Shown here piece after piece: positions 4,819 through 35,071 of a DNA stretch of 64,000 nt. This stretch comes from Patescibacteria group bacterium (GTDB taxonomy: Bacteria > Patescibacteriota > Patescibacteriia > UBA10025 > JAHIVO01), in the NCBI GenBank assembly GCA_028718605.1, contig JAQULM010000003.1:16971-80970 (forward strand), written 5' to 3'. The first letter of the stretch is position 1. Each line of letters starts with the position of its first letter. Both the position numbers and the translations under genes were made by a program. Under the pieces are notes generated by a model, which did no database searches, was not told where the DNA came from, and worked only from the letters and a program-made list of their open reading frames with translations.

Positions 4819-5963
4819 TTACTTCCCGAAATTCACCCCGCCGCGGAAACCGATCGGAAACACCCAGAACCAGTCTTTGAGCACCCCGGTGTCGGTGTCG
4901 TAGTCATACACCCGGAGATTCGGGCCGCCGTGGGATGCCGGGGAGGTCATGACCTCGTCAAACCCGTCAGCGTCGACGTCGTTCACGAACAGGTTAACGC
5001 CACCCATGAAATGGGCGTCGTACGCCATGAATGAATCAACTTCTTCGAAATCGCCCCCCTGGTACCGCAACACCTTCACTGTGGAATCGCCAAGCGTCTT
5101 GGGGGCAAGCACCACCTCATTGGAGCCGTCACCGTCCGTATCCCCCACCTGCATGGACAGGGTGCCGCGATAGGAGCTGTCGTACGCCATGAGCCAGTCG
5201 AGGAGCTCCAGCTCGTCACTGCCATTCAGTGTGTAAATGCGGATGTTCGGGCCGCCGTTCAGGAAGGGCGCGACGATGATGTCGTCGTTCCCGTCAGAAT
5301 CCACATCCCCGGTAGCCACCTGCACACCGCCAAAGAAGGTGTCTTGGTACGCGGTAACGCTATCGACTAAATCAAACTCCTGGTCTGCGGCGCTATAGCG
5401 GAATACCTTTACAATGGGCGCCATCGCGCCGCGCGGGGTTACGATGAGCTCGTCAACACCGTCGGAATCCAGGTCACCCGATGCCAGGTTGACCCCGCCG
5501 CGGAACTCCTCGCTGTAGCCAAAAAACCAGTCCATGAGCTCAAATTCCTCTTCAGCGACATTGTACGTATAGATGCGGATGTTCGGGCCGCCGGCGCCGA
5601 TCGGCGTCACGGCAATGTCTTCCTTGTGGTCGCCGTCAAAGTCGCCCGTGGCAAGGTTGACGCCGCCGGTAAATCCCTCGTTGAACGCGAGGGTATTCGC
5701 CATTTCCGTGCCATCGAGCTCAAACGCCTTGATGCGGGACTCAACCCCGGCGCCGGGGGTGATAACAATTTCATTCACGCTGTCTGCGTCAATATCTGCC
5801 TGCGCAACTTCGAGGCCCATGCGCAAACTCTGGTCGTAGGCGAAGAACGACTCGATCTGGGTGCCGTCATCCTCGACGATGCGCACGTTGGGGCCGCCTG
5901 CTGAGGCGGGGGTAACGACGATGCCGAGGGATGGGATCGCGTCTGAAGTCATAAAGGTCCATG
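4819..5963. repeat. ~1.14-kb near-identical direct repeat, copy A (3' part of paralog 1)
   Basis: Identical to 32513..33658 apart from 2 nt near the stop. Antisense ORF-track entries 4949..5173, 5573..5839 and 5626..5904 are identical to 32643..32867, 33267..33533 and 33320..33598. Confidence 0.85.
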
Positions 5964-7407
5964 CAGTTTGCGACTCGTTTCCCAGTTCATCACTTGCCGT
6001 TACCGCAACCTCAACAGTTTCGCGGTAATAAAAGTTATCATCTGGATTGATAGTCACCGTGTAACCGTGGGTGCCATTCCAGCCCATTGTACCACCATAC
6101 CCAGACTCATAAACTCCATCGGTAACCGCCCGATGGCCGTTTATGGTTACGTCAATCGAATAGGTATCAACTTCCCAGAGCTCGTCACTGACGAAAAAGC
6201 TCACGTCAGAATTTGGTGAAACGCCGGTTTCTGCGCTTCCCGGGCTCAAGTTGTCAAACGTCGGCCCTGTTGTATCGGCAACAAATCCGTCCCAAACGCC
6301 TGCGCCATCAACAGTATTCTCGGTACCGATATATAAATGATGGCCATGCTCGACCAATCCATACGCGCGCGTATTGCTGCTATCGCCGAATCCGTCATCA
6401 TTCACCTGGGCAAAGGTGTTACCATCGTACGTCCAGACCTCTGCACCAGTTACGAGGTTGCGCGTGCCAAACGTCAGTGTACTGTTGTACTTGGTAATCG
6501 CAAGCAAGGTCGCGTTATTCAAATCGCCGAAGCCATCATCACCGATCTGGGTAAAAGTACTGCCGTCGTACGTCCAGGCTTCCACGCCGGTCGTCGGGTT
6601 CCATGTCCCAATATACAATACGCTACCGTTTGCATAGAGGGAAAACGGCTCCAAATTATTGATGTCACCAAACCCATCATCGTTGAGCGCAGTCCAGGAT
6701 GTTCCGTCGTATTCATGGAGTTGCCCGCCGGTTACCACATTGCCCGCGCCTGCTAAAAGCTTCCCATTATACTCAACCAGGGAATCGGTGTACAAATTGC
6801 CAGCATCGCCGAATCCGTCATCGTTCACCTGGTTCCAGTCGGTGCCATCGTATGACCAAATCTCAGCGCCAGTCCAAAAATTGTACGAACCAACATACAG
6901 CTTTTCATCAAAGACGAGCATCGAAAAACCGCTAAAGTTGTGCACATCGCCGAAACCATTGGTATTAACCTGGGTCCACACGCTACTGCGGTACCGCCAC
7001 ACCTCGACGCCAGTAATTTCATTGTACGTAGCGACATACAGTGAGCCATTATATTCCGCCATGCTGCTAATAATAACATTGTTTGCATCCCCGAAGCCAT
7101 CAGTATTCACTTGGCTCCAGACATCACCATCATACGCCCACACTTCAGCGCCAGTTGTGGCATTTGATGTGCCGACATAGAGCTGATCAGAGCTCACCAG
7201 CGACATCGTACGGGTGTTATTCACATCACCGAACCCGCCACTGTCACTTTCTGACCAGGTAATTGCAGCGTGCACACTGGCCGGAACCAGCCACGCTGCA
7301 ACAGCAAAAACAGCCACGGCAATGAATGCCCTGACATTGTGTCCATTTCCCATACTCGTATGTTTAATTGTTATCCCTCTCGCATTCAGTATAGTATACA
7401 ATTCCAC
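4819..7407 (-). CDS. large secreted two-propeller protein, paralog 1: N-terminal YDG..W..QVN.DGFGD repeats, Ig-like middle domain, C-terminal FG-GAP-like repeats
   Basis: 862 aa with signal peptide. About 7 N-terminal ~50-aa repeats (..TG.E.W.YDG..W.QVN.DGFGD..N). 7 C-terminal repeats of GGVNLATGDFDGDHKEDIAV type (FG-GAP/integrin-alpha-like). Ends in FRGGVNFGK. Confidence 0.8.
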   Translation of the reverse strand: MELYTILNARGITIKHTSMGNGHNVRAFIAVAVFAVAAWLVPASVHAAITWSESDSGGFGDVNNTRTMSLVSSDQLYVGTSNATTGAEVWAYDGDVWSQVNTDGFGDANNVIISSMAEYNGSLYVATYNEITGVEVWRYRSSVWTQVNTNGFGDVHNFSGFSMLVFDEKLYVGSYNFWTGAEIWSYDGTDWNQVNDDGFGDAGNLYTDSLVEYNGKLLAGAGNVVTGGQLHEYDGTSWTALNDDGFGDINNLEPFSLYANGSVLYIGTWNPTTGVEAWTYDGSTFTQIGDDGFGDLNNATLLAITKYNSTLTFGTRNLVTGAEVWTYDGNTFAQVNDDGFGDSSNTRAYGLVEHGHHLYIGTENTVDGAGVWDGFVADTTGPTFDNLSPGSAETGVSPNSDVSFFVSDELWEVDTYSIDVTINGHRAVTDGVYESGYGGTMGWNGTHGYTVTINPDDNFYYRETVEVAVTASDELGNESQTAWTFMTSDAIPSLGIVVTPASAGGPNVRIVEDDGTQIESFFAYDQSLRMGLEVAQADIDADSVNEIVITPGAGVESRIKAFELDGTEMANTLAFNEGFTGGVNLATGDFDGDHKEDIAVTPIGAGGPNIRIYTYNVAEEEFELMDWFFGYSEEFRGGVNLASGDLDSDGVDELIVTPRGAMAPIVKVFRYSAADQEFDLVDSVTAYQDTFFGGVQVATGDVDSDGNDDIIVAPFLNGGPNIRIYTLNGSDELELLDWLMAYDSSYRGTLSMQVGDTDGDGSNEVVLAPKTLGDSTVKVLRYQGGDFEEVDSFMAYDAHFMGGVNLFVNDVDADGFDEVMTSPASHGGPNLRVYDYDTDTGVLKDWFWVFPIGFRGGVNFGK

Positions 7408-7443
7408 TTACATGCAATAAAAACGACAGTATTGGAATTTCTG

Positions 7444-8181
7444 TTATTTCTGTTTCACTCCCTCGACCATCAGGCTCTCGAGCGGAATGCCCTGGTATTG
7501 TTGTTTACTGATCTTTTTGTTCTCGGACAAAATTGTAACATTGAATCCAGCTTCTTCCATCATAGTAATATAAACGTCCTTCAACAAAGCACCGCCAACG
7601 CATCCTGCGATCAGCTCCTCGTTCTTCCGCTGCTCCGGCGTGAGCTCAGCAAGCAATACAATATCCGATACGTACATTTTGCCTTCTGGTTTCAGCACAC
7701 GATGCGCTTCTTTGAAAACTTTCAGCTTGTCCGGCGCTAGGTTGATGACGCAGTTTGAAATAATTACATCTACCGAATTATCTTCAACTGGCAGCTGCTC
7801 GATGTCTCCGAATCTGAATTCAACATTGGTAAAACGGCCTTTGTCAGCATTTGCTTTTGCAGTTTTGATCATTTTTTCTGTAAAATCAACGCCAATGACT
7901 TTTCCGGTTATCCCGGTCTTTTTAGACGCAAGGAAGCAATCAATACCGCCGCCACTTCCTAAATCAACAACGGTATCACCGGGCTTGATCTTGCTAAACG
8001 CGGTCGGATTGCCACACCCCAAACCCATGTTCGCATCGCCGACCGCTTTCAATTGTTCAGCGGTATAACCTATTTGTGAAGCAATCGCATCCTTGCTGTT
8101 GCATGAACATGAACAACCGCAGTTTGGTTTGTTCGCAATTTCAGAATATTTTCTTTTAATAATGTTTTTAGTGTTAGGCAT
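7444..8181 (-). CDS. arsM: arsenite S-adenosylmethionine methyltransferase-like (ArsM/Cyt19 family)
   Basis: SAM-MTase motif [11 protein letters not shown] and conserved Cys pairs (NCGCSCSC N-terminal, LGCGNP, CVGG). Typical ArsM length from the internal Met MPNTK. Confidence 0.7.
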
Positions 8182-8242
8182 GAATCGATTATAACATACA
8201 ATTGCAGGCTGAAAAATCCCCCCCAAAGCACAAAGATTGCAC

Positions 8243-10039
8243 CTACCCATTCCGCGCACGCTTGCGCTCATTGACAGTCAGATATTTCTTTCGCAATCGG
8301 ACGCTCTTCGGCGTAACTTCAAGATATTCGTCTTCCGCCATGATTTCCAGTCCCCGCTCAATGGTCAGCTCCATCGGCGGCGCAAGCTGGATGGATTCAT
8401 CGGTGCCGGACTCGCGCATATTCGTGAGGCGCTTGCCCTTGACCGGGTTCACCGCAATATCAACGCCTTTCGACGTATTGCCGATCACCATGCCTTCGTA
8501 AATTTCCGCGCCAGGCCCGATGTACAGCGTGCCGCGCTGCTGCAGCGTATCCAGCGAATACCCGAGCGCCTTGCCGGTTGCCATGGAAACCATTGAGCCA
8601 GCGTCACGCTTATTAATGTCACCTGCCAGCGGACGGTAACCGATAAAACGGGAACACAAAATCCCCTCACCCCTCGTATCAACGATAAATTCGCTCCGGT
8701 ACCCCAGAAGTCCGCGGGTCGGGATTTCAAACAGCATCCGCAAGACGCCGGCGGTGTGTTCAATGTGAGTCACGATTCCCTTGCGCTTGCCGATTTTTTC
8801 CATCACGATACCGGATGACACTTCCGGCACATCAACCGTCACCTCTTCAAACGGTTCCATTTTTTTGCCGTCGATTTCCTTAATGATGACCTGAGGCTGC
8901 GACACCTGCACTTCGAAGCCTTCGCGGCGCATATTTTCTATGAGTATGGCAACATGCAGTTCGCCCCTGCCGTATACCTTATAGGCGTCTGATGAAAAAT
9001 CGATCTTTAAGCCAACGTTTACTTCCAGTTCTTTTTCAAGCCGCTCCCGCAGCTGCCTATTGGTCACAAACGTCCCTTCCCTGCCGGCAAGCGGCGAGTT
9101 GTTCACGAGAAAATTGAGCGAAATGGTCGGTTCATCCACCGTAATGGCGGGTAACGCTTCCTGGTCCTCACGTTCGCACAGCGTCTCGCCAATATCAATA
9201 TTCGGGAAGCCGGCGATCATCACGATATCACCCGCATCCGCCCGCTCAACCGCTACACGCTGTATTCCTTTGAATGTAAACAGTTTCGTCACCTTGCCGT
9301 GCTGCCCAGCGCCATCAGGCTTTTTCAGCACAAGCGTACTGCCGGACTGTACCGTGCCCTCATACACGCGGCCGATTGCCAAACGGCCGAGGTAATTGTC
9401 GTAGCCGAGGTTGAACGGCTGGAACCGGAACGGTACCGAGGTATCAGCGGGCGCTGGGTGCACCTTCAGCAAAATCGTATCAAGAAGCGGGGCCAAATCA
9501 CGGGATTCGTCTTCGAGATTCAGTTTGGCGATCCCGTCGCGGCCGACGGCGTACACCGTCGTGAAATCCAGCTGCTCATCGCTCGCGCCAAGGTCGAGGA
9601 ATAACTCGTACACTTCTTCCTGCGCTAAATCCGGATCAGCGGCCGGCTTGTCAATTTTATTGATAACGACGATCGGCATAATTCCGAGTTCGAGCGATTT
9701 TTTCAAGACAAACCGCGTCTGGGGCATCGGGCCTTCTTGCGCATCGACGACCAGCAGCACGCTGTCGATCGAGCGCAGGACCCGCTCAACTTCTGAGCCG
9801 AAATCCGCATGCCCGGGCGTATCCACGATATTAATCTTCGTACCGCGGTAGAACACCGAGGCGTTTTTTGAATAGATGGTAATGCCCCGCTCTTTTTCCA
9901 GCGCATTCGAATCCATGCTGGCTGTTGCGTCGGTAACCATGCCGGTCTGACGCATAATGGCGTCAGTGAGCAGTGTCTTCCCATGGTCTACATGCGCGAT
10001 GATGGCGATATTACGTATTTGCATACTTTGTGATACCAA
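8243..10039 (-). CDS. typA: translational GTPase TypA/BipA
   Basis: 598 aa. [18 protein letters not shown] and NKID G-motifs. EF-G-like domains. Confidence 0.9.
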
Positions 10040-10082
10040 AAACTTTAACGCTTACCTAACAGAGGAGCGCTGATGGTTGATA

Positions 10083-11375
10083 TTAACGGTACCGGCGCCG
10101 GGTAAAACTTGAACGCGACCGGCGCTGATACCCGCGGTTACGCGAATCCACCCGTCCCCGTTGCCTGCCGTATGCCTGCCGGCTCATCGGGTGCCGCGGC
10201 TCATACCTGGCTGGTGGTAATTTCGGCAATGGTTTTACGGGGAGCGTGGCGCGTATAAAACGCTCGATGCTCCGGACATCCTGCTGCTGGTCAAACGTCG
10301 CAAATGACACTGCTCTGCCGGTCCTGCCAGCGCGCGCGGTCCGCCCGATGCGATGGACGTAATCTTCGGCATGCGTCGGCAGGTCAAAATTCACGACCGC
10401 CTCAATGCCGGTCACGTCGATACCGCGTGCCGCAATGTCAGTCGCAATCAATACCCGATACTTGCCGGACTTAAATCCGCCCATCGCGTCCTTGCGCTGG
10501 GGAAGGCTGCGGTCCGAGTGGATTTCGGCCGCCTCATGCCCCATGGTGCGGACCTTGTAGGCGAGGCGTTTTGCCCCGTACTTTGTCCGAGTAAATACTA
10601 ATACCGGGCCGATTGTTTGCTGCAGCAGCAATTCCAATAACCTGCCTTTATCCTCTTTTGAAACGAAAAAAAGTTCTTGCGTTACCTGGTCAACCGTGGT
10701 ACCCGGCCGTGCAATTTCCACGCTGATCGGGAGTTTCATATGGTGCTGGGCGATTGCCACGATTTCTTTGGGCATGGTCGCGGAAAACAGCATGGTCTGC
10801 CGATTACGCGGTACTGCAGCCAGAATTTTATTGATCTGCGGGGCAAATCCCATATCCAGCATCCGGTCCGCTTCATCGAGCACCAATACGCGTACGTCGC
10901 CCAGATCAATGAAATGCTGCTCCAGATGGTCGATCAACCGACCGGGAGTAGCAATGATGACGTGAGGTTTTTGCTTGATGTACTGCCGCTGGACGGACAT
11001 TGATGCCCCGCCGATGAGCACTGCAGTGCGCAGCCCAAATGAACGGCCAAGCTCTGTAAATGCTTCGTCAACCTGGATCGCGAGCTCACGCGTCGGCAAC
11101 AATACCAGCCCGCACCCGCCTACCTGCGCCAAACGCTGAAGCATGGGAATACCGAACGCAAGCGTCTTGCCCGTGCCTGTCTGGGCAATGCCGATCAGGT
11201 CCTTCCCCTCGATCGCGACTGGAATCGACCGCTCCTGGATCGGAGTCGGTTCGGTGAATTTCAGCCGATCAATTGCTTCGAGCAAGCGCGGCGCAATGCC
11301 AAGACCGTGGAATCCGTTCATTTTTGGATTCGCACTCGGTTGTTGTTCCTTTTCAGTTATTCTTCCGTTATGCAT
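10083..11375 (-). CDS. DEAD-box ATP-dependent RNA helicase
   Basis: Q-motif, AQTGTGKT, DEAD (VLDEADRM), SAT and HRIGRTAR motifs. Arg-rich C-terminal tail. Start codon uncertain (several in-frame Met). Confidence 0.85.
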   Translation of the reverse strand: MHNGRITEKEQQPSANPKMNGFHGLGIAPRLLEAIDRLKFTEPTPIQERSIPVAIEGKDLIGIAQTGTGKTLAFGIPMLQRLAQVGGCGLVLLPTRELAIQVDEAFTELGRSFGLRTAVLIGGASMSVQRQYIKQKPHVIIATPGRLIDHLEQHFIDLGDVRVLVLDEADRMLDMGFAPQINKILAAVPRNRQTMLFSATMPKEIVAIAQHHMKLPISVEIARPGTTVDQVTQELFFVSKEDKGRLLELLLQQTIGPVLVFTRTKYGAKRLAYKVRTMGHEAAEIHSDRSLPQRKDAMGGFKSGKYRVLIATDIAARGIDVTGIEAVVNFDLPTHAEDYVHRIGRTARAGRTGRAVSFATFDQQQDVRSIERFIRATLPVKPLPKLPPARYEPRHPMSRQAYGRQRGRVDSRNRGYQRRSRSSFTRRRYR

Positions 11376-11471
11376 AAAAATAAAAATCCTGGATGAGGAT
11401 TCTAGAGGCGCCGGAAGTATACTGCATAATGGGATATCTGTCAACAACACCCCTGGCATTCACTGGCTTTT

Positions 11472-13943: not shown

Positions 13944-13950
13944 CTATATT

Positions 13951-14280: not shown

Positions 14281-14337
14281 ATTTTTATAAAAACCAATTA
14301 AATGCTTGGACGGGTATTTTTCTCTTCGACGATCCGA

Positions 14338-24786: not shown

Positions 24787-24999
24787 GCCTGAAGTATACC
24801 GTCCGTATCCGCCACTGGCAAAACGTGTAATTACAAAAAACCGCCTCGAAAAGCGACGGCATTCTTCCTCCCTGCCCGCTTCGCCCATGCGAAGCACCCG
24901 CCTGAATCGCCGTTTCGGCGGGCAGGTGGCGGGCGGGCCTGAAATCGGCATTATACCCTTCTTTAAGTATTTTTTTTTACTATACTACTATTCAATTAT

Positions 25000-26804: not shown

Positions 26805-26815
26805 ATTTTTTTATC

Positions 26816-27625: not shown

Positions 27626-27666
27626 ATCCCCATTCTCCTCTTATTTCCCAAAAAAATCAACCACAC

Positions 27667-28782
27667 CTACCGCACCCCAAACAACCTCCCTAGTACCGAT
27701 ATCCTCCGTAGAATGAATTCATAGGCCAGGGCGACTCCGGCATACGACGCAATGGTTATTACCAGAAATTTCAGCCACACAGCCGCATCCCACTGGATCA
27801 CGTAATAGCCGACGCTGATGACAATGGGCAAATGGATGATGTACGCGGGGTACGACGCCGGCCCGAGGTACCTGACCGCGCGGGTCGGACGGTTGAGGAA
27901 GGCGTGGCCGAGGGCGAGGAAAGCCAGGATGGCTGTCCAGGCATACATGTCGTGCAATAAGTCAAAGGCGATCGTGCCCAGGGTGAATCCTCCCTGCCGC
28001 TCTCCCCAAGCCTGCAGCATGGTGTACACAACACCGAGAATCAACGCGAACGCAAGCAGGAAATACTTCTGGCGGTCGACGCGCTCCTGGAGCCGCTGGT
28101 CGGTCATCCAGATAAACCCAAAAAGCAGCAGGAGGAAGAAGCTCGCGGCGCTGCGGTCAACCACGTCGGGCACGCCGTCGAAGAGGAGGAGGAAAAACGG
28201 CACGATGAACAGCGCGCCTGGTTTAGCGAGGACCGTTGTTACCCGGGAGAGCAGCCGTGCGCCCCGCTCGCTCTTGAACCACATAAAAATCGGCAGAGCG
28301 ATAAGGGAGAGGACCAGGAGGAACAGGACGAACCATAGGTGGCCGGGTGAAAAGTGGCCGGCGTATCCCGTGTAGTCGCCGCCGTCCAGCGAAAAAAACG
28401 TAGGGTAGTAGCGCCAGAATGAAATGCGCTCACCGGTGGCAAACCGGTAGCCGTAGTACCCCATCACGGGGATGACCGTCGCTATTGCCACGACCAACGG
28501 CACGAGCAGGCGCAGCACGCGCCGGGCGATAAACTGCCGCCACGTATGCCGGCGCAGCATAAACCAGGCCGAAGCGCCGGCGACGAAGAAGAGGAGCTGC
28601 ATCCCCCACGCCCCCACGAAATCCGTGAACTGGGCGAGGAACACGCTGGACGCGCCGTTCTTCAGGAAGAACTCTCCGCCGACGTCGAACATGACCGCGG
28701 CGTGGAACGGGACAAGCATGGCAATCACTCCGACGCGAAGCCAGTCGAGATCATAGCGCCGGATGTTTTCTTGGGTATTCAT
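27667..28782 (-). CDS. acyltransferase 3 family membrane protein (OatA/OpgC-like)
   Basis: 371 aa, about 10 TM helices. N-terminal DLDWLRVGVIAMLVPFHAAVMF is typical of Acyl_transf_3. Confidence 0.7.
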   Translation of the reverse strand: MNTQENIRRYDLDWLRVGVIAMLVPFHAAVMFDVGGEFFLKNGASSVFLAQFTDFVGAWGMQLLFFVAGASAWFMLRRHTWRQFIARRVLRLLVPLVVAIATVIPVMGYYGYRFATGERISFWRYYPTFFSLDGGDYTGYAGHFSPGHLWFVLFLLVLSLIALPIFMWFKSERGARLLSRVTTVLAKPGALFIVPFFLLLFDGVPDVVDRSAASFFLLLLFGFIWMTDQRLQERVDRQKYFLLAFALILGVVYTMLQAWGERQGGFTLGTIAFDLLHDMYAWTAILAFLALGHAFLNRPTRAVRYLGPASYPAYIIHLPIVISVGYYVIQWDAAVWLKFLVITIASYAGVALAYEFILRRISVLGRLFGVR

Positions 28783-29085
28783 TACGTAATTTTTTCACTT
28801 TTTTACGTAAAAATCAACTCCCCACATTAACGTTTGTGTGGGAGCAGGCCCGCCCTCCTCCGCGCATCTCTTCTTCGTCCCCGCTCCCAGATTTACGCCC
28901 ATATAAAAAATGTTACGGAAATTGAGTGAGGAGGAATGCCCACCTCTAGGCGGACGCGGCATCTTGTTTGAGCGAACGCAGCGAAGCCCTGCCGGTGTAG
29001 GCGAAGCGAGGAGCGAGTTATGCCACGGAATGACGACGAGCCAATTTCTGTTAATTTTTTATCCTGGGCGGCACTTCTTTTCTGT

Positions 29086-29113
29086 CCACTTTTCTTTGTG
29101 CAAAGAAAAGTGG
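29086..29113. repeat. 28-bp palindrome ccacttttctttg tg caaagaaaagtgg
   Basis: Related to the 20369..20396 palindrome (shared CCRCTTTTCTT...AAGAAAAGYGG arms). A further palindrome gccatacgtatggc lies nearby at about 29167. Confidence 0.55.
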
Positions 29114-29274
29114 AGGGAAGTGAAGAGGCTAACCCCTCCACCTATCTTCCCCTGCCCGCCGCGCATATGCCATACGTATGGCGCAGGGGGCGTTTACCGA
29201 AAGGTACCCGCTACTTTTTTTCTATTTGCTTCGTGTCCGGCCCGGATACGCGAGGCCGCGTTTGGCGCATAAAA

Positions 29275-29622
29275 CTAATGCGGAAACAGTACTTCGCCTC
29301 CCGCAAACAGCACCCAGAAACCGCCGATTACGCACAGGATAATAAAAACGACGAGGTTCCAGGTACTCCTGTCTTTTATTTTGAAAATCGCCCGAATGTT
29401 GAGATACAGCGCAATAACAAAGAGGATGATTTCCAACACTACCATTGGAATGCTGCTCGAGCGCATCTGCAGAATGCCGCGGAAAATGCGGCCAGCAGGG
29501 ATCAGCAGCACGCCCCAGGCAATGGCGATGATCCCAAAGGTTAATGCCATCTTCCCCTCTTTTGTCCGAGGCATTGATTCTCTCGCGGGTTTTAACTGTT
29601 CCTGATTGTTTGGATTTTCCAT
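29275..29622 (-). CDS. small membrane protein
   Basis: 115 aa with 3 TM helices. Confidence 0.4.
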   Translation of the reverse strand: MENPNNQEQLKPARESMPRTKEGKMALTFGIIAIAWGVLLIPAGRIFRGILQMRSSSIPMVVLEIILFVIALYLNIRAIFKIKDRSTWNLVVFIILCVIGGFWVLFAGGEVLFPH

Positions 29623-29627
29623 ATTTT

Positions 29628-30026
29628 TTATGAACAGGTTGTAAAAAACATCGATGAAATCGTCTGGACAATGAGCAACCCGATAACCTGGCTTGAAACC
29701 ATCGCGATGTACTTCGCGTACCCGACGACCTGTTTCCCGTCTTTTGTCTTATTCTTCGCCCGCAGCTGCAGCACGCTGACGAAAAAGGTGATGCTCATGA
29801 CCATCAGTATGAGAAAAATCGCGCCGTAGAGAATGTTGTACCCTTCGTTCCTGTTCGCCTCAGGAGATGAACCGTCGTTAACGATGCACGGGTCGTAGAT
29901 GAACCAGTAGTCGATTGCCGCAAACACGGTCAGGATCCAGCCGGCGATGAAAAAAATGTTCAAGAACGTGGCGAGCCTGGGGAATGCGTCCTTGAATGGC
30001 ATTGTTGGTTGTGTTGATTGGTCCAT
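29628..30026 (-). CDS. small membrane protein
   Basis: 132 aa with 3-4 TM helices. Confidence 0.4.
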   Translation of the reverse strand: MDQSTQPTMPFKDAFPRLATFLNIFFIAGWILTVFAAIDYWFIYDPCIVNDGSSPEANRNEGYNILYGAIFLILMVMSITFFVSVLQLRAKNKTKDGKQVVGYAKYIAMVSSQVIGLLIVQTISSMFFTTCS

Positions 30027-30050
30027 ACGTGCACTATTTCTAATGGTTAT

Positions 30051-30623
30051 TTATGCGTATTTTGCGCGCATCTCCTTGAGCCACTCATGGTAGGCTTCGT
30101 GTTTGACTTCGCCAATCACGTCATGTTCGATCTTTTTAAATTCTTCCCAGAGCTTTTCTGCTTCAGGGGAGGCAAATTCCTTTTCCATGGCCGGAAACAG
30201 GCGCTCTGCCTCGGTCCTGATGTGTTTTTGCAAAAGATCGGCATACCCCGTGAGGCAGCGGCTAACATGGATCGCGTGCGGGTTGCCGGCGCTGTACTGA
30301 GGAAGTGAATCAGCGATGCCCCTGATGAAATCACGGCCGGCGATGTGCTCGCCGAGCAGTTCATTGACGAGGCCGGCGTACTCCTTTGATTTTTTTATTA
30401 ATTGGGGGAACACCTGGTCTTCTTCCTTGGCATGGTGGCACTTGTCTGCAAACGTCCGGACGAAATCAACGATGGCTTCCAGGTCTTTCTTGTTTACATC
30501 GTTACCTTCATCGAGCTGTTTCGCTAGTGCCCTGGCAATGATGAGAAATACAAGAATCGCGCCATGTTCGTTGCCGAGGTCTTTCGTTGGTTTGGTCATA
30601 CTGTCCCCCTCGTGATTATACAT
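30051..30623 (-). CDS. hemerythrin-like (HHE cation-binding) domain protein
   Basis: Repeated H..E / HxxxE spacing (NEHGAI, KCHHAKEED, HIRTEAERLF, EHDVIGEVKHEAYHEWL). Confidence 0.45.
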   Translation of the reverse strand: MYNHEGDSMTKPTKDLGNEHGAILVFLIIARALAKQLDEGNDVNKKDLEAIVDFVRTFADKCHHAKEEDQVFPQLIKKSKEYAGLVNELLGEHIAGRDFIRGIADSLPQYSAGNPHAIHVSRCLTGYADLLQKHIRTEAERLFPAMEKEFASPEAEKLWEEFKKIEHDVIGEVKHEAYHEWLKEMRAKYA

Positions 30624-30710
30624 ACAGTTTCCCTCTTTTACGTAAAAAAATCAATGCCAAAAGCAAAAGGCCGGAATAAACTCCGACCTTTGGTAATAGG
30701 CAAATGGAAT

Positions 30711-30914
30711 TCAGTACTTTTTGAATTGGTCCGCACCTGGAAATGGCTCACGATGGACAATCGGCCCTCCTTGCATCGGCCATCCGTCCTTCGGGCACGT
30801 CCGTTTACACACCGGGATGTCTGCCCCCAGAGAATCCCCATGGTAATGCCCGGTCTGTACTTCGTTGCATCCAGGTTTGGTACACGTCCACTGCCAATTG
30901 GGAGTCGGATACAA
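30711..30914 (-). CDS. small Cys-rich (zinc-ribbon-like) protein
   Basis: 67 aa. TTG start 8 nt downstream of GGAGG. CTKPGC...CKRTC cysteine pairs. Confidence 0.35.
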   Translation of the reverse strand: MYPTPNWQWTCTKPGCNEVQTGHYHGDSLGADIPVCKRTCPKDGWPMQGGPIVHREPFPGADQFKKY

Positions 30915-30977
30915 TATATACTCCTTCCGAAAAGGTTCTGTTTGCTATTTCTATTCTTGCCCTTTTTGCGAATAAAG

Positions 30978-31568
30978 TCAAAAAAGGCGGATGATGGCGT
31001 GCCGGTTGAAACGGCGGTACGGATGATGCCGGAATCGAGCGGGCAAGCCTGCTTTCCCGGGGTTATGTCCCATGTAGGCAATGACGGTGTGCAGGTATTT
31101 TCTGTTGCTAACAATGCGGGTGTAAAAGCGTTTTTGGAATACGGGATAATTCATATCGTACGAATCACGAATCGCATCGCAATAATACGATTTGATGCCG
31201 TGCATTACATCGGATATTGTATACCCCCGAGCGCGGGCCGCCGTGCCCGCGCTCCCATTTTTTAGGCGCACCGCACCCACAGCGGGGTGCGGTGGGAGGA
31301 TATTATATAGTAATAGATGAATATGGTCGGGCATTATTTGAAATGCTAGAACTTCGAATTGCTTCATATCGCACGTTTTGAATATCACCCGACACATCAA
31401 CCCCGCCAGTTCCCCATCCTCAAACATCGGAATCCCCTCCCGCGTGCGAAACGCGGTGAAATATGGATATCCATCTTGGTACACGCGCCGTTGCGTCATA
31501 CATAAATACCTTCCGTTTGTGGGGGAAGGCCTGTGCCTGCATCGTACCACGATTCTGGAAAATATCAA
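30978..31568 (-). CDS. tnpA: IS200/IS605-family Y1 (HUH) transposase, RAYT-like, containing in-frame REP-like palindromes
   Basis: FEVLAFQIMPDHIHLLL (HUH motif) and VFQKRFYTRIVSN..YLHTVIAYMGHNPGKAGL (catalytic Tyr region). A ~35-aa insert between these blocks is encoded by two GC-rich palindromes. Confidence 0.6.
   Translation of the reverse strand: MIFSRIVVRCRHRPSPTNGRYLCMTQRRVYQDGYPYFTAFRTREGIPMFEDGELAGLMCRVIFKTCDMKQFEVLAFQIMPDHIHLLLYNILPPHPAVGAVRLKNGSAGTAARARGYTISDVMHGIKSYYCDAIRDSYDMNYPVFQKRFYTRIVSNRKYLHTVIAYMGHNPGKAGLPARFRHHPYRRFNRHAIIRLF
31221..31295. repeat. REP-like palindromes (gagcgcgggc..gcccgcgctc and caccgcaccc..ggggtgcggtg) inside the transposase ORF
   Basis: atacccccgagcgcgggccgccgtgcccgcgctcccatttt is near-identical in its arms and flanks to 32179..32220. 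Confidence 0.65.
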
Positions 31569-32122
31569 TCCCCTGTCCTCGCTAAAATCTCCTTAATCTC
31601 CTCCGCCCCGTATCCTTTCTGTGCAAGAAACGCGTACAGCTTCCTTTTCACGGTATACTGTTCTTTTGCCCCAGGATGTTTTTCTTTGAGGCGTTCGTGC
31701 TTGCGCTGCGTCTCGCGGATTATTGCCGTGTAATCTTGCTTTGTCCCAGACTGTTTCCATTCACCCAACACTTTTTCAATAAGAGGGCGCGGAATAAGCC
31801 GGCGATGCATTTTTTGGCGTATGCGGTACAGCCCGTCTTTCCTGTCCTGGAGCTGGCGCAGCACGTCGCGGCAGTATTTCTCGTCATCGACTAAACCGAC
31901 AGCCGCAAGCTCATCAAGCACTTTCTGGACATGTTCGGGGGTATAAAAAAGATACCGCGCGGTCGATGGGTAGTTGCGTTTGAGGCTGGTCACTTTTTGC
32001 AGCAGCTTCTTTTCCGAAAATCCCTGGCGCGACAGGTAGTCCAGGATCTTGTCCTTGATGTGTTGGTAATCGTCGGGGGTGGGAGCGCTCATAGAATCAC
32101 AAACGGAAAAAGTTAACGGCAA
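31565..32122 (-). CDS. recX: recombination regulator RecX
   Basis: 185 aa, three-repeat helical RecX fold (KYCRDVLRQL.., AIIRETQRK.., KRKLYAFLAQKGYGAEEIKEIL). Confidence 0.75.
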   Translation of the reverse strand: MPLTFSVCDSMSAPTPDDYQHIKDKILDYLSRQGFSEKKLLQKVTSLKRNYPSTARYLFYTPEHVQKVLDELAAVGLVDDEKYCRDVLRQLQDRKDGLYRIRQKMHRRLIPRPLIEKVLGEWKQSGTKQDYTAIIRETQRKHERLKEKHPGAKEQYTVKRKLYAFLAQKGYGAEEIKEILARTGD

Positions 32123-32178
32123 AACGTTATATAGTAAGTGTACGCTGGTCTAGAAGCCAGGACAAGGAATGGATTTTT

Positions 32179-32220
32179 ATACCTCCGAGCGCAGGCGTCT
32201 CTGCCTGCGCTCCCCATTTT
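32179..32220. repeat. REP-like palindrome, second copy
   Basis: atacctccgagcgcaggcgtctctgcctgcgctccccatttt. Confidence 0.65.
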
Positions 32221-32297
32221 GGAGCTGAGCTTTGGTACTTTCTGTCGACAGTGAGTACAAGAAGAATATCCGAAATAGGAAACATCCCCCCCTTGCC

Positions 32298-32473
32298 TAC
32301 CCTTCAATCATCCGGCTCAGCTTGTACCCGACCCAAATGCCGAAGAACCCGCCAACGGCGCCGCCGATGATCGATTGGAAGCCTTAACTGCTGGCACCCC
32401 AGAGGGTCGGGAGGTACCCGCCAAGCGCTCCTCCGATAAAAACAAATATGTAAATAAATGCTTTGCTGCCCAT
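32298..32473 (-). pseudogene. GlsB/YeaQ/YmgE-family small membrane protein with in-frame TAA
   Basis: MGSKAFIYIFVFIGGALGGYLPTLWGASS*GFQSIIGGAVGGFFGIWVGYKLSRMIEG. The TAA at 32385..32387 interrupts an otherwise typical 58-aa Gly-rich two-helix protein. Confidence 0.45.
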
Positions 32474-32512
32474 TTGCCTCCTGCCGTTTTTTTTATAACT
32501 AAATGCGATGCG

Positions 32513-33658
32513 CTACTTCCCGAAATTCACCCCGCCGCGGAAACCAACCGGAAACACCCAGAACCAGTCTTTGAGCACCCCGGTGTCGGTGTCGTAGTCA
32601 TACACCCGGAGATTCGGGCCGCCGTGGGATGCCGGGGAGGTCATGACCTCGTCAAACCCGTCAGCGTCGACGTCGTTCACGAACAGGTTAACGCCACCCA
32701 TGAAATGGGCGTCGTACGCCATGAATGAATCAACTTCTTCGAAATCGCCCCCCTGGTACCGCAACACCTTCACTGTGGAATCGCCAAGCGTCTTGGGGGC
32801 AAGCACCACCTCATTGGAGCCGTCACCGTCCGTATCCCCCACCTGCATGGACAGGGTGCCGCGATAGGAGCTGTCGTACGCCATGAGCCAGTCGAGGAGC
32901 TCCAGCTCGTCACTGCCATTCAGTGTGTAAATGCGGATGTTCGGGCCGCCGTTCAGGAAGGGCGCGACGATGATGTCGTCGTTCCCGTCAGAATCCACAT
33001 CCCCGGTAGCCACCTGCACACCGCCAAAGAAGGTGTCTTGGTACGCGGTAACGCTATCGACTAAATCAAACTCCTGGTCTGCGGCGCTATAGCGGAATAC
33101 CTTTACAATGGGCGCCATCGCGCCGCGCGGGGTTACGATGAGCTCGTCAACACCGTCGGAATCCAGGTCACCCGATGCCAGGTTGACCCCGCCGCGGAAC
33201 TCCTCGCTGTAGCCAAAAAACCAGTCCATGAGCTCAAATTCCTCTTCAGCGACATTGTACGTATAGATGCGGATGTTCGGGCCGCCGGCGCCGATCGGCG
33301 TCACGGCAATGTCTTCCTTGTGGTCGCCGTCAAAGTCGCCCGTGGCAAGGTTGACGCCGCCGGTAAATCCCTCGTTGAACGCGAGGGTATTCGCCATTTC
33401 CGTGCCATCGAGCTCAAACGCCTTGATGCGGGACTCAACCCCGGCGCCGGGGGTGATAACAATTTCATTCACGCTGTCTGCGTCAATATCTGCCTGCGCA
33501 ACTTCGAGGCCCATGCGCAAACTCTGGTCGTAGGCGAAGAACGACTCGATCTGGGTGCCGTCATCCTCGACGATGCGCACGTTGGGGCCGCCTGCTGAGG
33601 CGGGGGTAACGACGATGCCGAGGGATGGGATCGCGTCTGAAGTCATAAAGGTCCATGA
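32513..33658. repeat. ~1.14-kb near-identical direct repeat, copy B (3' part of paralog 3)
   Basis: See copy A at 4819..5963. Identity ends at ...aaggtccatg, after which the two sequences diverge. Confidence 0.85.
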
Positions 33659-35071
33659 AAGTGAACTCTGGTTGGCCCCTGAATCGCTGACAGTAGCGGT
33701 AATCGAAACCAACTGGCCGTAATAGAAATCAGCCCCTGGTTGGATGGTTATTTCGTATGACCACGTTTCGTTCTGTGTAATCGTCCCGGAAAAATCTTCC
33801 GTTAATTCACCGTCGACGATTGCATACACGCCATCGACGAGCACATCCAAACTCGCGCTGTCAACGTCGAGGACTGCGTCAGTAATTGAAAATGTAATAT
33901 CAGTGCCCCGCGCTACGCCCCGAGCGGCATTTGCCGGAACAAGGTCGCTGACTACCGGGCCGGTACTGTCCTCGAGTTCTCCTTTCCACATTTGCGTCCC
34001 ATCGGAGTCGCTGTTCGTTCCAGCGTACAATATGTTATCGTACGCCGATAAAAGCGAGGTACTGTACCCATCGGTGCCGCCAAAACCATCCTCGTTTACC
34101 TGTGCCCATGAAGAACCGTCATATGACCACATCTCAGTGCCGGTCACCGCGTTCGTTGTGCCGGCGTATAAATGATGGGTAAGCGTCTCGAGGGAATACA
34201 CACCGGTATTGTGGTCATCATCAAACCCCGCATGCGATACGCGGGTGAATTCCGCACCGTCATACTTCCACACTTCTCCGCCGTTGGTCGGGTTCTCCGT
34301 GCTGATGTACAGCGATCCGCCGAACTCCTGCAAATCCATGAAACCTTCATTGGTTGCGTCACCAAAGCCGTCGGTTCCCACCATGGACCAGTCCGACCCA
34401 TCATACTTCCACAGCTCGGCGGGCTGGGTATCTTTATACGTGCCAACATAGAGTTCCCCCTGATACTCTTCCGAGGCCATACAATACGTATTCGAGTGAT
34501 CCCCGAAACCATCGGTATTAACTTGCGTCCAAGAATCGCCATCGTATTCCCAGAATTCGCAGCCAGTAGAAAAATTGCCGGTCGCGGCGTAGAGTTTATC
34601 GTTAAAAACCGTTACATCCATCACGATATAGTTTTCCGCATCGCCAAAACCGTCCGTATTGGCCTGGGACCACGTAGTGCCATCGTACGCCCAAACCTCG
34701 GCCCCAGTAATGAGGCGCTGGGTTGCGACGTACAGCTTGCCGTCATATACGGCAAGTCCGGGGCCCTCAACATTCATTGCATCGCCAAATCCATCGGTAT
34801 TGACCTGGGTCCACGTTGATCCATCAAGCCGCAGCACCCGAGTGCCGTCATTCCAGTTGGAAGTAGCAGTATAGAAATGGCCCTCGTATTCAGCAAGCGA
34901 GTATACAATAAGATTACCGGCATCGCCGAGGCCGGTCGTGCTTGACTGCGCCCACGTTATATCCTGGGCGTGTGCAATATTCGGAATGAGCACGCACGCA
35001 AACATACCACCCACGATCAAACGCAGAGCAACTGCAATGCCTGCATGGTGTTGAGCATGTAATTGTCCCAT
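32513..35071 (-). CDS. large secreted two-propeller protein, paralog 3
   Basis: 852 aa. The N-terminal repeat region is diverged from paralog 1. The C-terminal ~380 aa are identical to paralog 1 except for 1 residue. Confidence 0.8.
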   Translation of the reverse strand: MGQLHAQHHAGIAVALRLIVGGMFACVLIPNIAHAQDITWAQSSTTGLGDAGNLIVYSLAEYEGHFYTATSNWNDGTRVLRLDGSTWTQVNTDGFGDAMNVEGPGLAVYDGKLYVATQRLITGAEVWAYDGTTWSQANTDGFGDAENYIVMDVTVFNDKLYAATGNFSTGCEFWEYDGDSWTQVNTDGFGDHSNTYCMASEEYQGELYVGTYKDTQPAELWKYDGSDWSMVGTDGFGDATNEGFMDLQEFGGSLYISTENPTNGGEVWKYDGAEFTRVSHAGFDDDHNTGVYSLETLTHHLYAGTTNAVTGTEMWSYDGSSWAQVNEDGFGGTDGYSTSLLSAYDNILYAGTNSDSDGTQMWKGELEDSTGPVVSDLVPANAARGVARGTDITFSITDAVLDVDSASLDVLVDGVYAIVDGELTEDFSGTITQNETWSYEITIQPGADFYYGQLVSITATVSDSGANQSSLSWTFMTSDAIPSLGIVVTPASAGGPNVRIVEDDGTQIESFFAYDQSLRMGLEVAQADIDADSVNEIVITPGAGVESRIKAFELDGTEMANTLAFNEGFTGGVNLATGDFDGDHKEDIAVTPIGAGGPNIRIYTYNVAEEEFELMDWFFGYSEEFRGGVNLASGDLDSDGVDELIVTPRGAMAPIVKVFRYSAADQEFDLVDSVTAYQDTFFGGVQVATGDVDSDGNDDIIVAPFLNGGPNIRIYTLNGSDELELLDWLMAYDSSYRGTLSMQVGDTDGDGSNEVVLAPKTLGDSTVKVLRYQGGDFEEVDSFMAYDAHFMGGVNLFVNDVDADGFDEVMTSPASHGGPNLRVYDYDTDTGVLKDWFWVFPVGFRGGVNFGK

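Follow-up and report, generated by a model that had tools for sequence, protein, structure and literature searches.

Three genes on the minus strand of the analysed stretch of DNA (64,000 nt, hereafter the window) encode proteins of one build, and the first and third of them (c1 and c3; c2 lies between) end in almost the same 1.14 kb of sequence. This locus raises the question of how two genes came to share their 3' parts, and whether the sharing marks a surface family whose N-terminal halves are being diversified, as an earlier note had proposed. The joint explanation that we consider probable is one of old paralogs, a single recent conversion of the whole C-terminal propeller, and proteins composed of an N-terminal passenger and a C-terminal docking module. 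The coordinates of the features are collected in Table 1.

Table 1. Features of the three genes, the direct repeat and its surroundings (window positions)
Feature	Position	Strand	Details and basis
c1 gene	4819..7353	minus	844 aa from annotated ATG; longest ORF extends to 7407; identical to P0002/MDD5716015.1
c1 signal peptide (…PASVHA|A)	7267..7353	minus	putative, read from sequence
c1 N-terminal 7-bladed propeller	6280..7266	minus	seven 47-aa repeats (W.QVN.DGFGD..N…LY.GT.N..TG.E.W.YDG); repeat parsing, AF2 of c3 equivalent
c1 Ig-like (Big_5) middle domain	5962..6276	minus	Pfam Big_5, 29.9 bits (cut-off 23.6); AF2 of c3
c2 gene	15542..18112	minus	856 aa; C module 15545..16684; ORF list and translation
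c3 gene	32513..35071	minus	852 aa; identical to P0001/MDD5716040.1
c3 signal peptide	34967..35071	minus	putative, read from sequence
c3 N propeller	33974..34966	minus	AF2
c3 Ig domain	33656..33970	minus	beta-sandwich in AF2 model
c3 C propeller	32516..33655	minus	AF2
Repeat copy A (c1)	4820..5963	minus	last Ig strand, whole FG-GAP propeller, first two stop-codon bases; ungapped identity, blastn, repeat families D2/D3
Repeat copy B (c3)	32514..33657	minus	content and basis as copy A
Sole differing codon	4852..4854	minus	ATC Ile in c1; GTT Val in c3 (32546..32548); GAA Glu in c2 (15575..15577)
26-nt patch TTCCGCGGCGGGGTGAATTTCGGGAA	4823..4848; 15546..15571; 32517..32542	minus	same in all three paralogs
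Unique DNA between repeat copies	5964..32513		26,550 nt; Pfam/PADLOC
Perfect hairpin AACAGGCTTGCG-AAAA-CGCAAGCCTGTT	4763..4790	minus	just 3' of c1 stop, outside repeat; read from sequence

The three reading frames lie where the earlier note had placed them (ORF list, translations), and the build it had read from them, a signal peptide, N-terminal repeats, an Ig-like domain and FG-GAP repeats, was recovered by Pfam, repeat parsing and AF2. Pfam matches in the two-propeller proteins were to FG-GAP, FG-GAP_3 and Big_5. Structure prediction, which had been suggested for both propeller domains, gave two 7-bladed propellers (pLDDT for c3 of 92.8 over the whole protein and 96.1 in the N domain). Repeat parsing likewise counted seven repeats per propeller and found six DxDxDGxxE loops. 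The signal-peptide segment of c3 was modelled as a low-confidence N-terminal helix. A Pfam search returned no family that covers the 47-aa repeat, and the best solved fold neighbour of the propeller built from it was the LGI1 EPTP propeller (TM 0.7-0.76). All three translations share the ending FRGGVNFGK, as had been pointed out; it would form the last strand of the C-terminal FG-GAP propeller and close the ring. The products of these old paralogs are probably secreted proteins of ~90 kDa, in which a putative Sec signal peptide would be followed by a 7-bladed beta-propeller of 47-aa repeats, a Big_5 Ig-like spacer and a Ca2+-motif FG-GAP (integrin-alpha-type) 7-bladed propeller.

The limits of the repeat were set by comparing the window with itself, in line with a check proposed at the outset. 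Without gaps, the two copies align as a direct repeat of 1,144 nt at an offset of 27,694 nt, with mismatches solely at 4852 and 4854 (blastn identity 99.825%). Since both fall in one codon, the perfect tract is 4855..5963 (1,109 nt), and the differing codon marks its 3' end. Identity drops to background immediately past both edges: base 4819 differs from 32513 (stop codon TAA versus TAG), and from 5964 on the sequences are unrelated. The repeat had therefore been described correctly as to its two mismatches and single amino acid difference, but with limits that were one base off at each end. The identity of 75-80% given for c2 in the same region was too high, the actual values relative to the cassette being 69% (nt) and 66% (aa). 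A run of 1,109 identical bases cannot arise at random in paralogs whose identity is otherwise 69%, and chance is thus ruled out. The 26-nt patch near the stop codon encodes the closing “velcro” strand FRGGVNFGK, and its synonymous sites differ among other genomes; it is a candidate 3' homology anchor. The hairpin beyond the c1 stop is likely a terminator; it was not among the results of a consensus terminator scan.

The DNA between the two copies holds c2, BipA, a DEAD helicase, SoFic, a PRTase/ParB_N/Dam island, RecX and other genes, which agrees with the earlier reading of Fic, a methyltransferase island and recX in this interval (Pfam). The c3 locus itself sits between ABC-2 transporter genes and RecX. 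Deletion or amplification of 27.7 kb through the repeats is mechanistically possible.

The source is a metagenome-assembled genome, and an exact repeat of 1.1 kb exceeds typical short-read inserts, yet a 155-kb contig bridges it. Had the assembler collapsed the repeat, made a chimera of it or merged strain variants into a consensus, two identical cassettes could in principle appear that the genome does not have. To check for misassembly, the window was compared with a second MAG (GCA_028711455.1) and with the Logan assemblies from two runs. Each of the four junctions (c1 N half to cassette, c3 N half to cassette, tail to c1 flank, and tail to RecX flank) was recovered on contigs 99.98-100% identical to the window. 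Every such contig breaks off once it has run 127 or 30 nt into the shared sequence, a length of k or k-1 to the base, which is what a genuine repeat in the reads leaves behind. In the second MAG, JAQTSE010000017.1 matches window 28112..5837 at 99.978% identity and breaks off exactly 127 nt into the c1 cassette; JAQTSE010000024.1 matches window 45917..33531 at 100%, with its break exactly 127 nt into the c3 cassette. In the Logan assemblies, contig ends lie at 33628 (30 nt into the c3 cassette), 32543 (30 nt into the c3 tail) and 4849 (30 nt into the c1 tail). The second-MAG contig of the interval between the repeats measures 26,839 nt, equal to the 26,550-nt interval plus 35 and 254 nt, its compared part being the 22,276 nt of window 28112..5837 at the c1-cassette end only. 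Both chimeric genes are in frame, their tails remain distinguishable by a codon and by the stop codon, the phasing of c1 is backed by synteny with its ortholog P0004, and the window contains no N. The two-copy repeat is not an assembly artefact, and a genome lacking two identical cassettes is very unlikely. As short-read assemblies cannot phase a 1.1-kb repeat, differences in the interior of the copies could have been collapsed by the assembler.

Trees of the two halves were incongruent (91-100% bootstrap). In the neighbour-joining tree of the N propeller, c3 grouped with c2 and P0005 (91%) and with P0007 (93%), and a split supported at 97% separated this group from the c1/P0004 side. In the tree of the C propeller, c1 and c3 were paired and then joined by P0003 and P0004, while c2 was paired with P0005 (100% for each grouping). 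The synonymous difference (pS) between c1 and c3 was 0.004 in the C propeller versus 0.71-0.84 in the N and Ig parts, and dS was at least 1.3 for every other pair. The discordant trees, together with a pS of 0.004 against saturation elsewhere, argue that the C module as a whole recently underwent gene conversion; with the repeat present in independent assemblies, the recent gene conversion or cassette exchange postulated earlier is upheld as a non-reciprocal exchange. The 1.14-kb repeat would be the footprint of one recent intragenomic event of non-reciprocal homologous recombination, in which the entire C-terminal propeller of one paralog was overwritten with that of the other. Judged from the sequences, conversion most likely ran from c1 to c3: the N half and Ig domain of c3 belong to the c2/P0005 lineage, and P0004 carries the same cassette type as c1. 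Window 2673..3038, downstream of c1, is matched by the gene that follows P0004; this synteny favours c1 as the gene to which the cassette is native, and it also supports the phasing of the contig. P0003 has an N half of a third type and the cassette type nearest to c1/c3 (88% aa). The transfer could accordingly have gone the opposite way, into c1 from a c3-like gene that was the original owner of the cassette. The tract probably covers the whole stretch in which the paralogs keep nucleotide homology, beginning with the conserved W-x-F strand where Ig domain and propeller meet and ending with the 26-nt patch before the stop codon, likewise conserved; this would explain its sharp edges on both sides.

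The mosaic is symmetrical, and trees alone cannot tell which half moved. In the reverse history, a c1-like gene was duplicated and its 5' 1.4 kb (N propeller and Ig domain) was then replaced from a lost B-type gene, making the N half the mobile part; P0003 and P0017, in which N-terminal regions of other kinds meet this cassette type at that very boundary, would fit. We consider this unlikely. Identity ends exactly at the stop codon, and neither the upstream nor the downstream flank of c1 is related to that of c3, so the duplication must have copied exactly the cassette, i.e. have been a conversion. There is also no nucleotide homology upstream of the boundary to guide a 5' replacement, and an additional unseen donor gene is required.

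Conversion of the C module leaves the question of whether the N propeller is actively diversified for interaction with a host, by antigenic or phase-variable cassette shuffling or by a diversity-generating retroelement. The proteins are secreted, multi-copy and repeat-built, long direct repeats connect two of the paralogs, and cultivated relatives of the organism are epibionts (PMC12206443). Nevertheless, such programmed variation is extremely improbable. A tblastn search of the 64 kb found neither silent nor partial copies. The three genes are all complete, each has an RBS and an upstream region to itself, and they showed neither homopolymer nor SSR switches. A repeat search gave no template/variable repeat pair, and no reverse transcriptase was found among the ~40 Pfam-scanned ORFs, all within 569..44026. 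The comparison of related strains that had been suggested for detecting N-terminal shuffling showed N halves that are 100% identical between two sampled strains, while all 5 SNPs in 22 kb fall in Fic and the c2 C module. The N halves represent ancient paralog lineages with orthologs in other genomes and saturated dS. The analysis of dN/dS along the genes supported a recent exchange in the cassette (pS 0.004) but showed the N-half divergence to be old, and neither a diversifying N-terminal propeller nor the hallmark of a polymorphic surface family, both claimed by the earlier note, was supported.

By sequence comparison, the unusual feature is the strong conservation of the C module and not variability of the N module. 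Between this genome and the related genome JBAZKE, the C propeller is 82-88% identical, compared with 71% for BipA, 77% for the DEAD helicase and 43-66% for other flanking genes, and dN is 0.09-0.14 in the C module versus 0.29-0.58 in the N module. Used as a query, the cassette matched 1,276 cluster representatives at E<=1e-30. Among the 38 top matches reaching the query end, 33 finish <=6 residues from the protein C-terminus, in proteins of 310-1,832 aa; cassette-bearing proteins include subtilases, CHB_HEX_C, Laminin_G_3 and Calx-beta/fn3 proteins, and P0017 has the same module (~70% aa, from ..IPSLGIV) fused to unrelated CarboxypepD_reg repeats. Conversely, the N propeller occurs in other settings: P0047 has the N propeller and Big_5 unit with a C-terminal dockerin (Dockerin_1), P0050 has it with FlgD_ig (40.3 bits) and a sub-threshold Por_Secre_tail match (25.5 bits, cut-off 27), and in P0075 the homologous region sits between the two halves of a flagellin. 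Because it ends many unrelated secreted proteins, and from its conservation and position, the FG-GAP propeller is suggested to be a constant docking module. It may dock the protein to a conserved partner that sits on the cell envelope or belongs to a complex, and the N propeller with the Ig domain would be the displayed, specificity-bearing “passenger”. Purifying selection would keep the C module nearly unchanged, and such a constant role could make it harmlessly swappable between paralogs. No conserved partner gene was found among the neighbours of the family genes. Recent homogenisation was seen neither between the JBAZKE paralogs (66% aa), against what the earlier reading of the family would suggest, nor between c2 and c1/c3, and the c1/c3 conversion looks like a sporadic event and not sustained concerted evolution.

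In Neisseria pilE/pilS, Borrelia vlsE and Mycoplasma MgPa, promoterless partial donor cassettes serve a single expression site and the variable region is exchanged. As in these systems, non-reciprocal recombination of related sequences alters an exported protein; here, however, all copies are complete genes, silent cassettes are absent from the window, and it is the conserved region that is exchanged. The 47-aa repeat shares an E-[VL]-W-x-Y-D-G-[ST] core with the ELWxxDGT repeat proteins (NCBIfam TIGR04534), but its matches are weak (25-30 bits), far below the curated cut-off of 65, and c1 has none. Like the domains of docking or sorting proteins, the FG-GAP module terminates many unrelated passengers, and Dockerin_1 of P0047 occupies its exact position; the P0050 match to a T9SS sorting domain is below cut-off, and the likeness to docking and sorting proteins is one of position. 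Neither a cohesin-like receptor nor a secretion system that serves the FG-GAP module is known.

Bacterial integrin-type FG-GAP domains have seven repeats with about one Ca2+-binding DxDxDGxxD/E loop per blade, are more regular than metazoan integrins and have no known function (Chouhan et al. 2011, PMC3192720). The seven repeats and Ca-motif loops are found here too. Those domains were considered possibly cytoplasmic, whereas the present proteins have putative signal peptides, and their propeller is at the extreme C-terminus behind an unrelated second propeller and an Ig domain. Identity with metazoan integrin alpha was rejected, as thigh/calf domains, a transmembrane helix, a cytoplasmic tail and a nearby beta-subunit gene are all missing; the integrin alpha head has three or four Ca motifs compared with six here.

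The nearest analogue appears to be the 3' concerted evolution of babA/babB in H. pylori. The babA/babB(/babC) and homA/homB genes encode paralogous outer-membrane adhesins at separate loci; RecA-dependent gene conversion within the genome makes their 3' segments identical in a given strain, whereas farther 5' and in the middle the genes remain divergent and cluster by allele, and chimeric genes arise (PMC3960876). In H. pylori, conversion is frequent, experimentally observed and alters the adhesion phenotype, in contrast to one recent event here and none in JBAZKE. The constant 3' part there encodes a membrane beta-barrel anchor; here it encodes a soluble FG-GAP propeller, and the organism is a Patescibacterium of monoderm type. 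In both cases the paralogs are exported, with the constant module C-terminal and the specificity module apparently N-terminal. The conversion of the c1/c3 tail is real, but its mode is a familiar one for surface-protein families.

The three minus-strand genes for paralogous secreted two-propeller proteins (c1, c2 and c3) that the earlier note had described were confirmed at the coordinates it had reported. They derive from a Patescibacteria MAG and lie on a contig of 155,724 nt (proteins MDD5716015, MDD5716023 and MDD5716040). All three proteins open with a typical Sec signal, read from the sequence and predicted to be cleaved after VHA, ASA or AHA, and no hydrophobic helix besides this signal was found in the sequence or in the AF2 model of a protein of this type, which was predicted with a 64-sequence alignment. 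The N domain consists of seven 47-aa repeats and, when modelled alone, formed a 7-bladed propeller (pLDDT 96.1, pTM 0.93) whose best solved fold neighbour is the LGI1 EPTP propeller (TM 0.7-0.76). No Pfam family matched this domain, and its assignment to the ELWxxDGT repeat proteins (TIGR04534) was rejected, as c2 (25.4 bits) and c3 (30 bits) scored below the curated cut-off of 65 bits and c1 gave no match. The middle module is a beta-sandwich (residues 373-477 of the AF2 model) that belongs to the Big_5 family (PF13205, cut-off 23.6 bits), with c1 (29.9 bits) and c3 (24.7 bits) above the cut-off and c2 (20.8 bits) below it. In all three proteins the C module matched FG-GAP_3 (51.8-52.8 bits, cut-off 26.9) and FG-GAP (39-47 bits, cut-off 22.1), and it forms a closed propeller of seven blades. 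The first blade takes three strands from residues 486-512 and its fourth from the extreme C-terminus (848-850), which makes the invariant ending FRGGVNFGK the ring-closing strand. DxDxDGxxD/E loops, which are candidate Ca2+-binding sites, occur in six of the seven blades of c1 and c3. An integrin alpha subunit proper was rejected, since the protein ends at the propeller with FRGGVNFGK and a stop codon and has neither thigh and calf domains nor a C-terminal transmembrane helix; no beta-subunit-like gene was present among the neighbours scanned with Pfam.

Coordinates of the family genes, the shared cassette and other features (window positions unless contig L027, which carries the relative P0007, is named)
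Feature	Position	Strand	Basis or remark
c1 ORF	4819..7407, annotated start 7353	minus	ORF list and translation
c2 ORF	15542..18112	minus	ORF list and translation
c3 ORF	32513..35071	minus	ORF list and translation
Cassette in c1	4820..5963	minus	1,144 nt
Cassette in c3	32514..33657	minus	1,144 nt
Cassette mismatches	4852 and 4854		c1 numbering
Perfect tract	4855..5963		1,109 nt
Logan contig end, c3 cassette	33628		30 nt inside
Logan contig end, c3 tail	32543		30 nt inside
Logan contig end, c1 tail	4849		30 nt inside
Adjacent differences in c2	15886..15887		versus second MAG
Heliorhodopsin	569..1366	minus	Pfam, 333 bits
Rieske protein	13951..14280	minus
RecX	31565..32122	minus
Region downstream of c1	3800..4818		GC 0.56
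MFS-like/spermidine synthase fusion	11472..13943	plus	823 aa
Fic gene	23175..24269	minus	SoFic defence model, 1.5e-55
Low-GC island	25000..27625	minus	three genes
ORF adjoining RecX	30978..31568	minus	partial Y1 transposase match
tRNA cluster	50307..51471	minus	five genes
P0007, Rieske, heliorhodopsin, RecX	L027 13055..17614	same strand	within 9 kb
Direct repeats around GIY-YIG gene	L027 4429..5117		secondary blastn matches

The cassette shared by c1 and c3, which carries the FG-GAP propeller, is 99.825% identical and gap-free by blastn, the two copies being offset by 27,694 nt. A single codon holds both mismatches (ATC Ile in c1, GTT Val in c3; GAA Glu in c2), so that 4855..5963 is a perfect tract. 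Past both edges, c1-c3 identity is at once that of the background. On the 3' side the stop codon already differs in its last base (TAA vs TAG) and the downstream flanks are unrelated, and at the 5' edge identity starts two bases ahead of the Trp codon in ..W-T-F-M-T-S-D.., within the last Ig-domain strand and 13 residues ahead of the first propeller strand. Among the three paralogs, the N propellers are 44-52% and the Ig domains 36-42% identical. For c2, an identity of 75-80% had been claimed in the C region; the measured values are lower, at 69% for nucleotides and 66% for amino acids. The blastn alignment of c1 and c2 runs from the stop codon to about 40 nt short of the 5' boundary, and the tract limits are the limits of nucleotide homology among the paralogs. 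A 26-nt patch directly before the stop is the same in c1, c2 and c3; its interpretation as a conserved nucleotide element was rejected, since its synonymous sites vary in other genomes. This patch, together with the match between tract limits and paralog homology, is what homology-dependent conversion predicts.

Other assemblies bear on whether the cassette identity could be an assembly artefact. A cluster look-up revealed a twin of the c2 protein (P0121, 855/856 residues identical) in a second MAG, GCA_028711455.1. Contig JAQTSE010000017.1 of this MAG (26,839 nt, of which 22,276 nt were read) matches 28112..5837 with five mismatches and ends exactly 127 nt into the c1 cassette, and JAQTSE010000024.1 matches 45917..33531 at 100% and ends exactly 127 nt into the c3 cassette. 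Logan contigs from runs SRR22315506 and SRR22315508 are 100% identical to the window and end 30 nt into the shared sequence. A true repeat makes contigs break off k or k-1 bases into the common sequence, as they do here at all four junctions, and both chimeric junctions and both tail/flank junctions therefore exist in independent read sets. This junction evidence largely excludes an artefact. The phasing of c1 across its cassette is supported by P0004, the sequence ortholog of c1 on JAHIVO010000048, which is followed by a homolog of 2673..3038, itself downstream of c1; the long-range phasing is putative, and assembly may have merged any differences inside the cassette. In practical terms, short-read assemblies of this genome break at the exact 1.1-kb repeat, at four points that can be predicted.

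Full-length relatives of the three proteins are few, with seven loci among 185,579 species representatives and 11 in JGI metagenomes. All are in Patescibacteria MAGs, one record being labelled Gammaproteobacteria. Domain-wise neighbour-joining trees (500 bootstraps) were strongly discordant between the two propellers. In the N-propeller tree, c3 grouped with c2 and P0005, a relative from the 680-kb genome JBAZKE (91%), then with the relative P0007 (93%), and was split from the side of c1 and P0004 at 97%. In the C-propeller tree, c1 and c3 were joined by P0003, also from JBAZKE, and then by P0004 (nested, each 100%), and c2 was paired with P0005 (100%). The C modules of c1 and c3 were 100% identical in amino acids, against 88% to P0003 and 81% to P0004. 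The proportion of synonymous differences (pS, Nei-Gojobori) between c1 and c3 in the C propeller was 0.004, and in every other comparison it was at least 0.61 and saturated, with dS at least 1.3. Selection on the protein alone was rejected, as it cannot yield identical synonymous sites; it is their homogenisation that shows the cassette identity not to be due to such selection. Together, the discordant trees and pS indicate that c3 is a mosaic, with the N half and Ig domain of a c2-type lineage and the C half of c1.

The simplest history is one recent gene conversion, tentatively from c1 to c3. The trees, the near absence of synonymous differences and the tract limits all bear out the earlier proposal of a recent exchange at the C-terminal module of these two copies. 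If the genes had instead arisen by duplication followed by replacement of the 5' part, the duplication would have had to be confined to the cassette and the donor of the new 5' part would have to be one that is unseen. We therefore favour conversion, an event verified across independent metagenome assemblies. The RecX gene beside c3 and the agreement of the tract limits with those of paralog homology are circumstantial evidence for a role of RecA and homologous recombination.

An earlier exchange is suggested by P0003, which is also why the direction from c1 to c3 is given as tentative. Its cassette is the nearest to that of c1 and c3 (88% of amino acids, dS ~1.3, the same as for the orthologs c2 and P0005) and stands behind an N half of a third type, which would make P0003 an older N/C mismatch of the same kind. 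Judged from these sequences, conversion is probably not continuous, as the C modules of P0003 and P0005 within JBAZKE reach just 66% identity and in c2 no stretch with reduced synonymous difference was seen. Two further candidates were rejected. Third-position identity between c2 and c1/c3 is somewhat raised in blades 1-3, but equally so in between-genome pairs, and is thus no evidence of older partial conversion tracts. Biased conversion was considered from the raised GC3 of the C module (0.74-0.76), which other genes also reach (mean 0.58, sd 0.115, max 0.79) and which is not significant. Recombination between the 1.1-kb direct repeats might in principle remove or multiply the 26.5 kb that separates them; loss of this interval would likely be costly, since it carries BipA, a DEAD-box helicase, MsrB and RecX.

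The N-terminal propeller had been thought to be the diversifying part, and this did not hold. The N halves are identical in the two sampled strains and thus not visibly diversifying; instead, it is the C half that is exceptionally constrained. Flanking orthologs of this genome and JBAZKE are 43-77% identical (BipA 71%, DEAD helicase 77%), so the 61% identity of the N propellers of c2 and P0005 is ordinary for this genome pair, and the C propellers reach 82% (c2/P0005) and 88% (c1 and c3/P0003). Likewise, dN was 0.09-0.14 in the C module vs 0.29-0.58 in the N module. For the N half, dN/dS yields no estimate of positive selection, as dS is saturated in all informative pairs. Over the 22,276 nt compared with the second MAG there are only five differences, three in the Fic gene and two in one C-module codon of c2, the latter changing Thr to Ala in the family-invariant motif YRGTLSM.

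Programmed variation, either from silent cassettes or by a diversity-generating retroelement (DGR), is contradicted on several counts. No extra family fragments or silent copies were found within the 64-kb window, each gene is complete with its own upstream region, and the identical N halves of the two strains again speak against it. As for a DGR, there are no template/variable repeats, the only repeats in the window being those of the three genes, and a Pfam scan of about 40 ORFs, all located in 569..44026, revealed no reverse transcriptase.

Gene order around the family has also changed. The relative P0007, on the 960-kb ENA contig k141_729649 (the same sequence as JBAZWB010000001.1 across the compared 14.6 kb), is the one family gene seen in the contigs scanned there and is followed on the same strand by genes for a Rieske protein, heliorhodopsin and RecX. 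In the window these markers are dispersed, with Rieske downstream of c2, heliorhodopsin of c1 and RecX of c3. This suggests that the three loci stem from one ancestral locus, either through a segmental duplication whose copies lost different genes or through rearrangement mediated by the paralogs. When 7444..11459 and 36899..37789 of the window were compared with JBAZKE, the c2-like P0005 was seen to stand there behind the DEAD helicase and BipA, which is the position of c1 in the window. Its other neighbours are scattered in the window near c1, near c3 and at 46-50 kb, so gene order around family genes is heavily rearranged between genomes. Short direct repeats (79-182 nt, 95-97% identity) surround a GIY-YIG gene on the contig of P0007.

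Several other features of the window were recorded. The heliorhodopsin is 72% identical to that of JBAZWB. The region of about 1 kb downstream of c1 is 100% conserved in both Logan assemblies and gave no convincing ORF, Pfam match or Rfam match. The only plus-strand gene in a long minus-strand run, kept in the second MAG, encodes a protein in which an MFS-like membrane domain, scoring under the Pfam threshold, is fused to a spermidine/spermine synthase domain. The low-GC island (GC 0.34-0.37 vs 0.51, GC3 0.22-0.31), identical in the second MAG, encodes a PRTase-CE protein (PADLOC PRTase_III-A, 1e-39), a ParB_N protein and a Dam-type N6-adenine methyltransferase, and no reverse transcriptase was seen beside it. 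The ORF adjoining RecX resembles the IS200-like Y1 transposase model over model positions 24-57 alone and may be a fragment or a domesticated REP-associated type. Rfam detected only tRNAs over the window; five form a cluster (Trp, two Thr(TGT), Tyr and Thr(GGT)), one Thr(TGT) scoring only 32 bits.

The C module also occurs as the terminal part of other proteins. P0017 (1,313 aa) joins the same module (~70% amino acid identity; 69.8% nucleotide identity to P0007), starting at ..IPSLGIV and ending in FRGGVNFGK, to unrelated CarboxypepD_reg repeats. Searched against 1.84 billion cluster representatives, the cassette returned 1,276 proteins at E<=1e-30; of the 38 top matches that reach the query end, 33 stop no more than six residues short of the C-terminus of their protein, whose length ranges from 310 to 1,832 aa. 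Nine of these were scanned with Pfam and include subtilases and CHB_HEX_C/Fn3_assoc, Laminin_G_3, Calx-beta/fn3 and CarboxypepD_reg proteins. Conversely, in P0047 the unit of N propeller and Big_5 is combined with a dockerin at the C-terminus, and it also occurs with cadherin-like domains. P0050 matched a T9SS-type sorting domain at a score that falls short of the Pfam threshold (Por_Secre_tail, 25.5 bits against 27), and in P0075 N-propeller homology occurs in a protein whose sole Pfam domains are the N- and C-terminal flagellin regions. No conserved partner gene was seen beside family members in the neighbourhoods examined. A distant subfamily is represented by three paralogs in one genome (P0057, P0110 and P0115, on one NCBI contig of 1,136,458 nt), which share the N-propeller repeat and combine it with a He_PIG Ig domain and another type of FG-GAP propeller, ending ..DVAVANF. 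Here too the C part is the more conserved (77% vs 48% for the N part between P0057 and P0110), without recent conversion.

From position and conservation we infer that the FG-GAP propeller may be a constant terminal docking or assembly module and the N propeller the displayed head. A far-reaching joint reading, which we consider rather unlikely, would make the C-terminal FG-GAP propeller a general, so far unrecognised surface docking module in Patescibacteria and other bacteria, with a role like that of dockerin or SLH domains, fitting a conserved envelope receptor. Paralogs and unrelated passengers would swap it as a discrete cassette at one set boundary (..PSLGIV), with gene conversion ensuring that all copies still fit the receptor. 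On this reading the N propeller of 47-aa repeats would serve as the epibiont's ligand or host-binding head, three heads giving three specificities, and recombination between paralogs would have remodelled the adjoining 30 kb too. The more interesting lead is a C-terminal FG-GAP propeller that many secreted proteins would share as their end unit, and it would matter more if confirmed experimentally.

The C module is one of the bacterial integrin-type FG-GAP propellers, which still await a functional assignment (PMC3192720), and host attachment in Patescibacteria is understood only for the type IV pili of Saccharibacteria (PMC12206443). Our literature searches returned no paper linking FG-GAP proteins to Patescibacteria, and none on ELWxxDGT or on the run and assembly accessions. 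With its confident structural model and clear modular logic, the family is a candidate displayed binding protein in another clade, which is uncultured. The locus shows in a clean natural case how a whole domain can be converted, within bounds that are those of paralog homology. Conversion itself is textbook, and the finding adds one more well-documented case of a known process, in a protein family that is uncharacterised. The pattern of c1 and c3 is that of babA/babB and homA/homB of H. pylori, in which 3' segments evolve in concert, 5' segments are divergent and chimeras arise by intragenomic conversion (PMC3960876). As with babA/babB, identity within the genome exceeds that between orthologs, the rest of the gene groups with its orthologs, and synonymous sites are homogenised.
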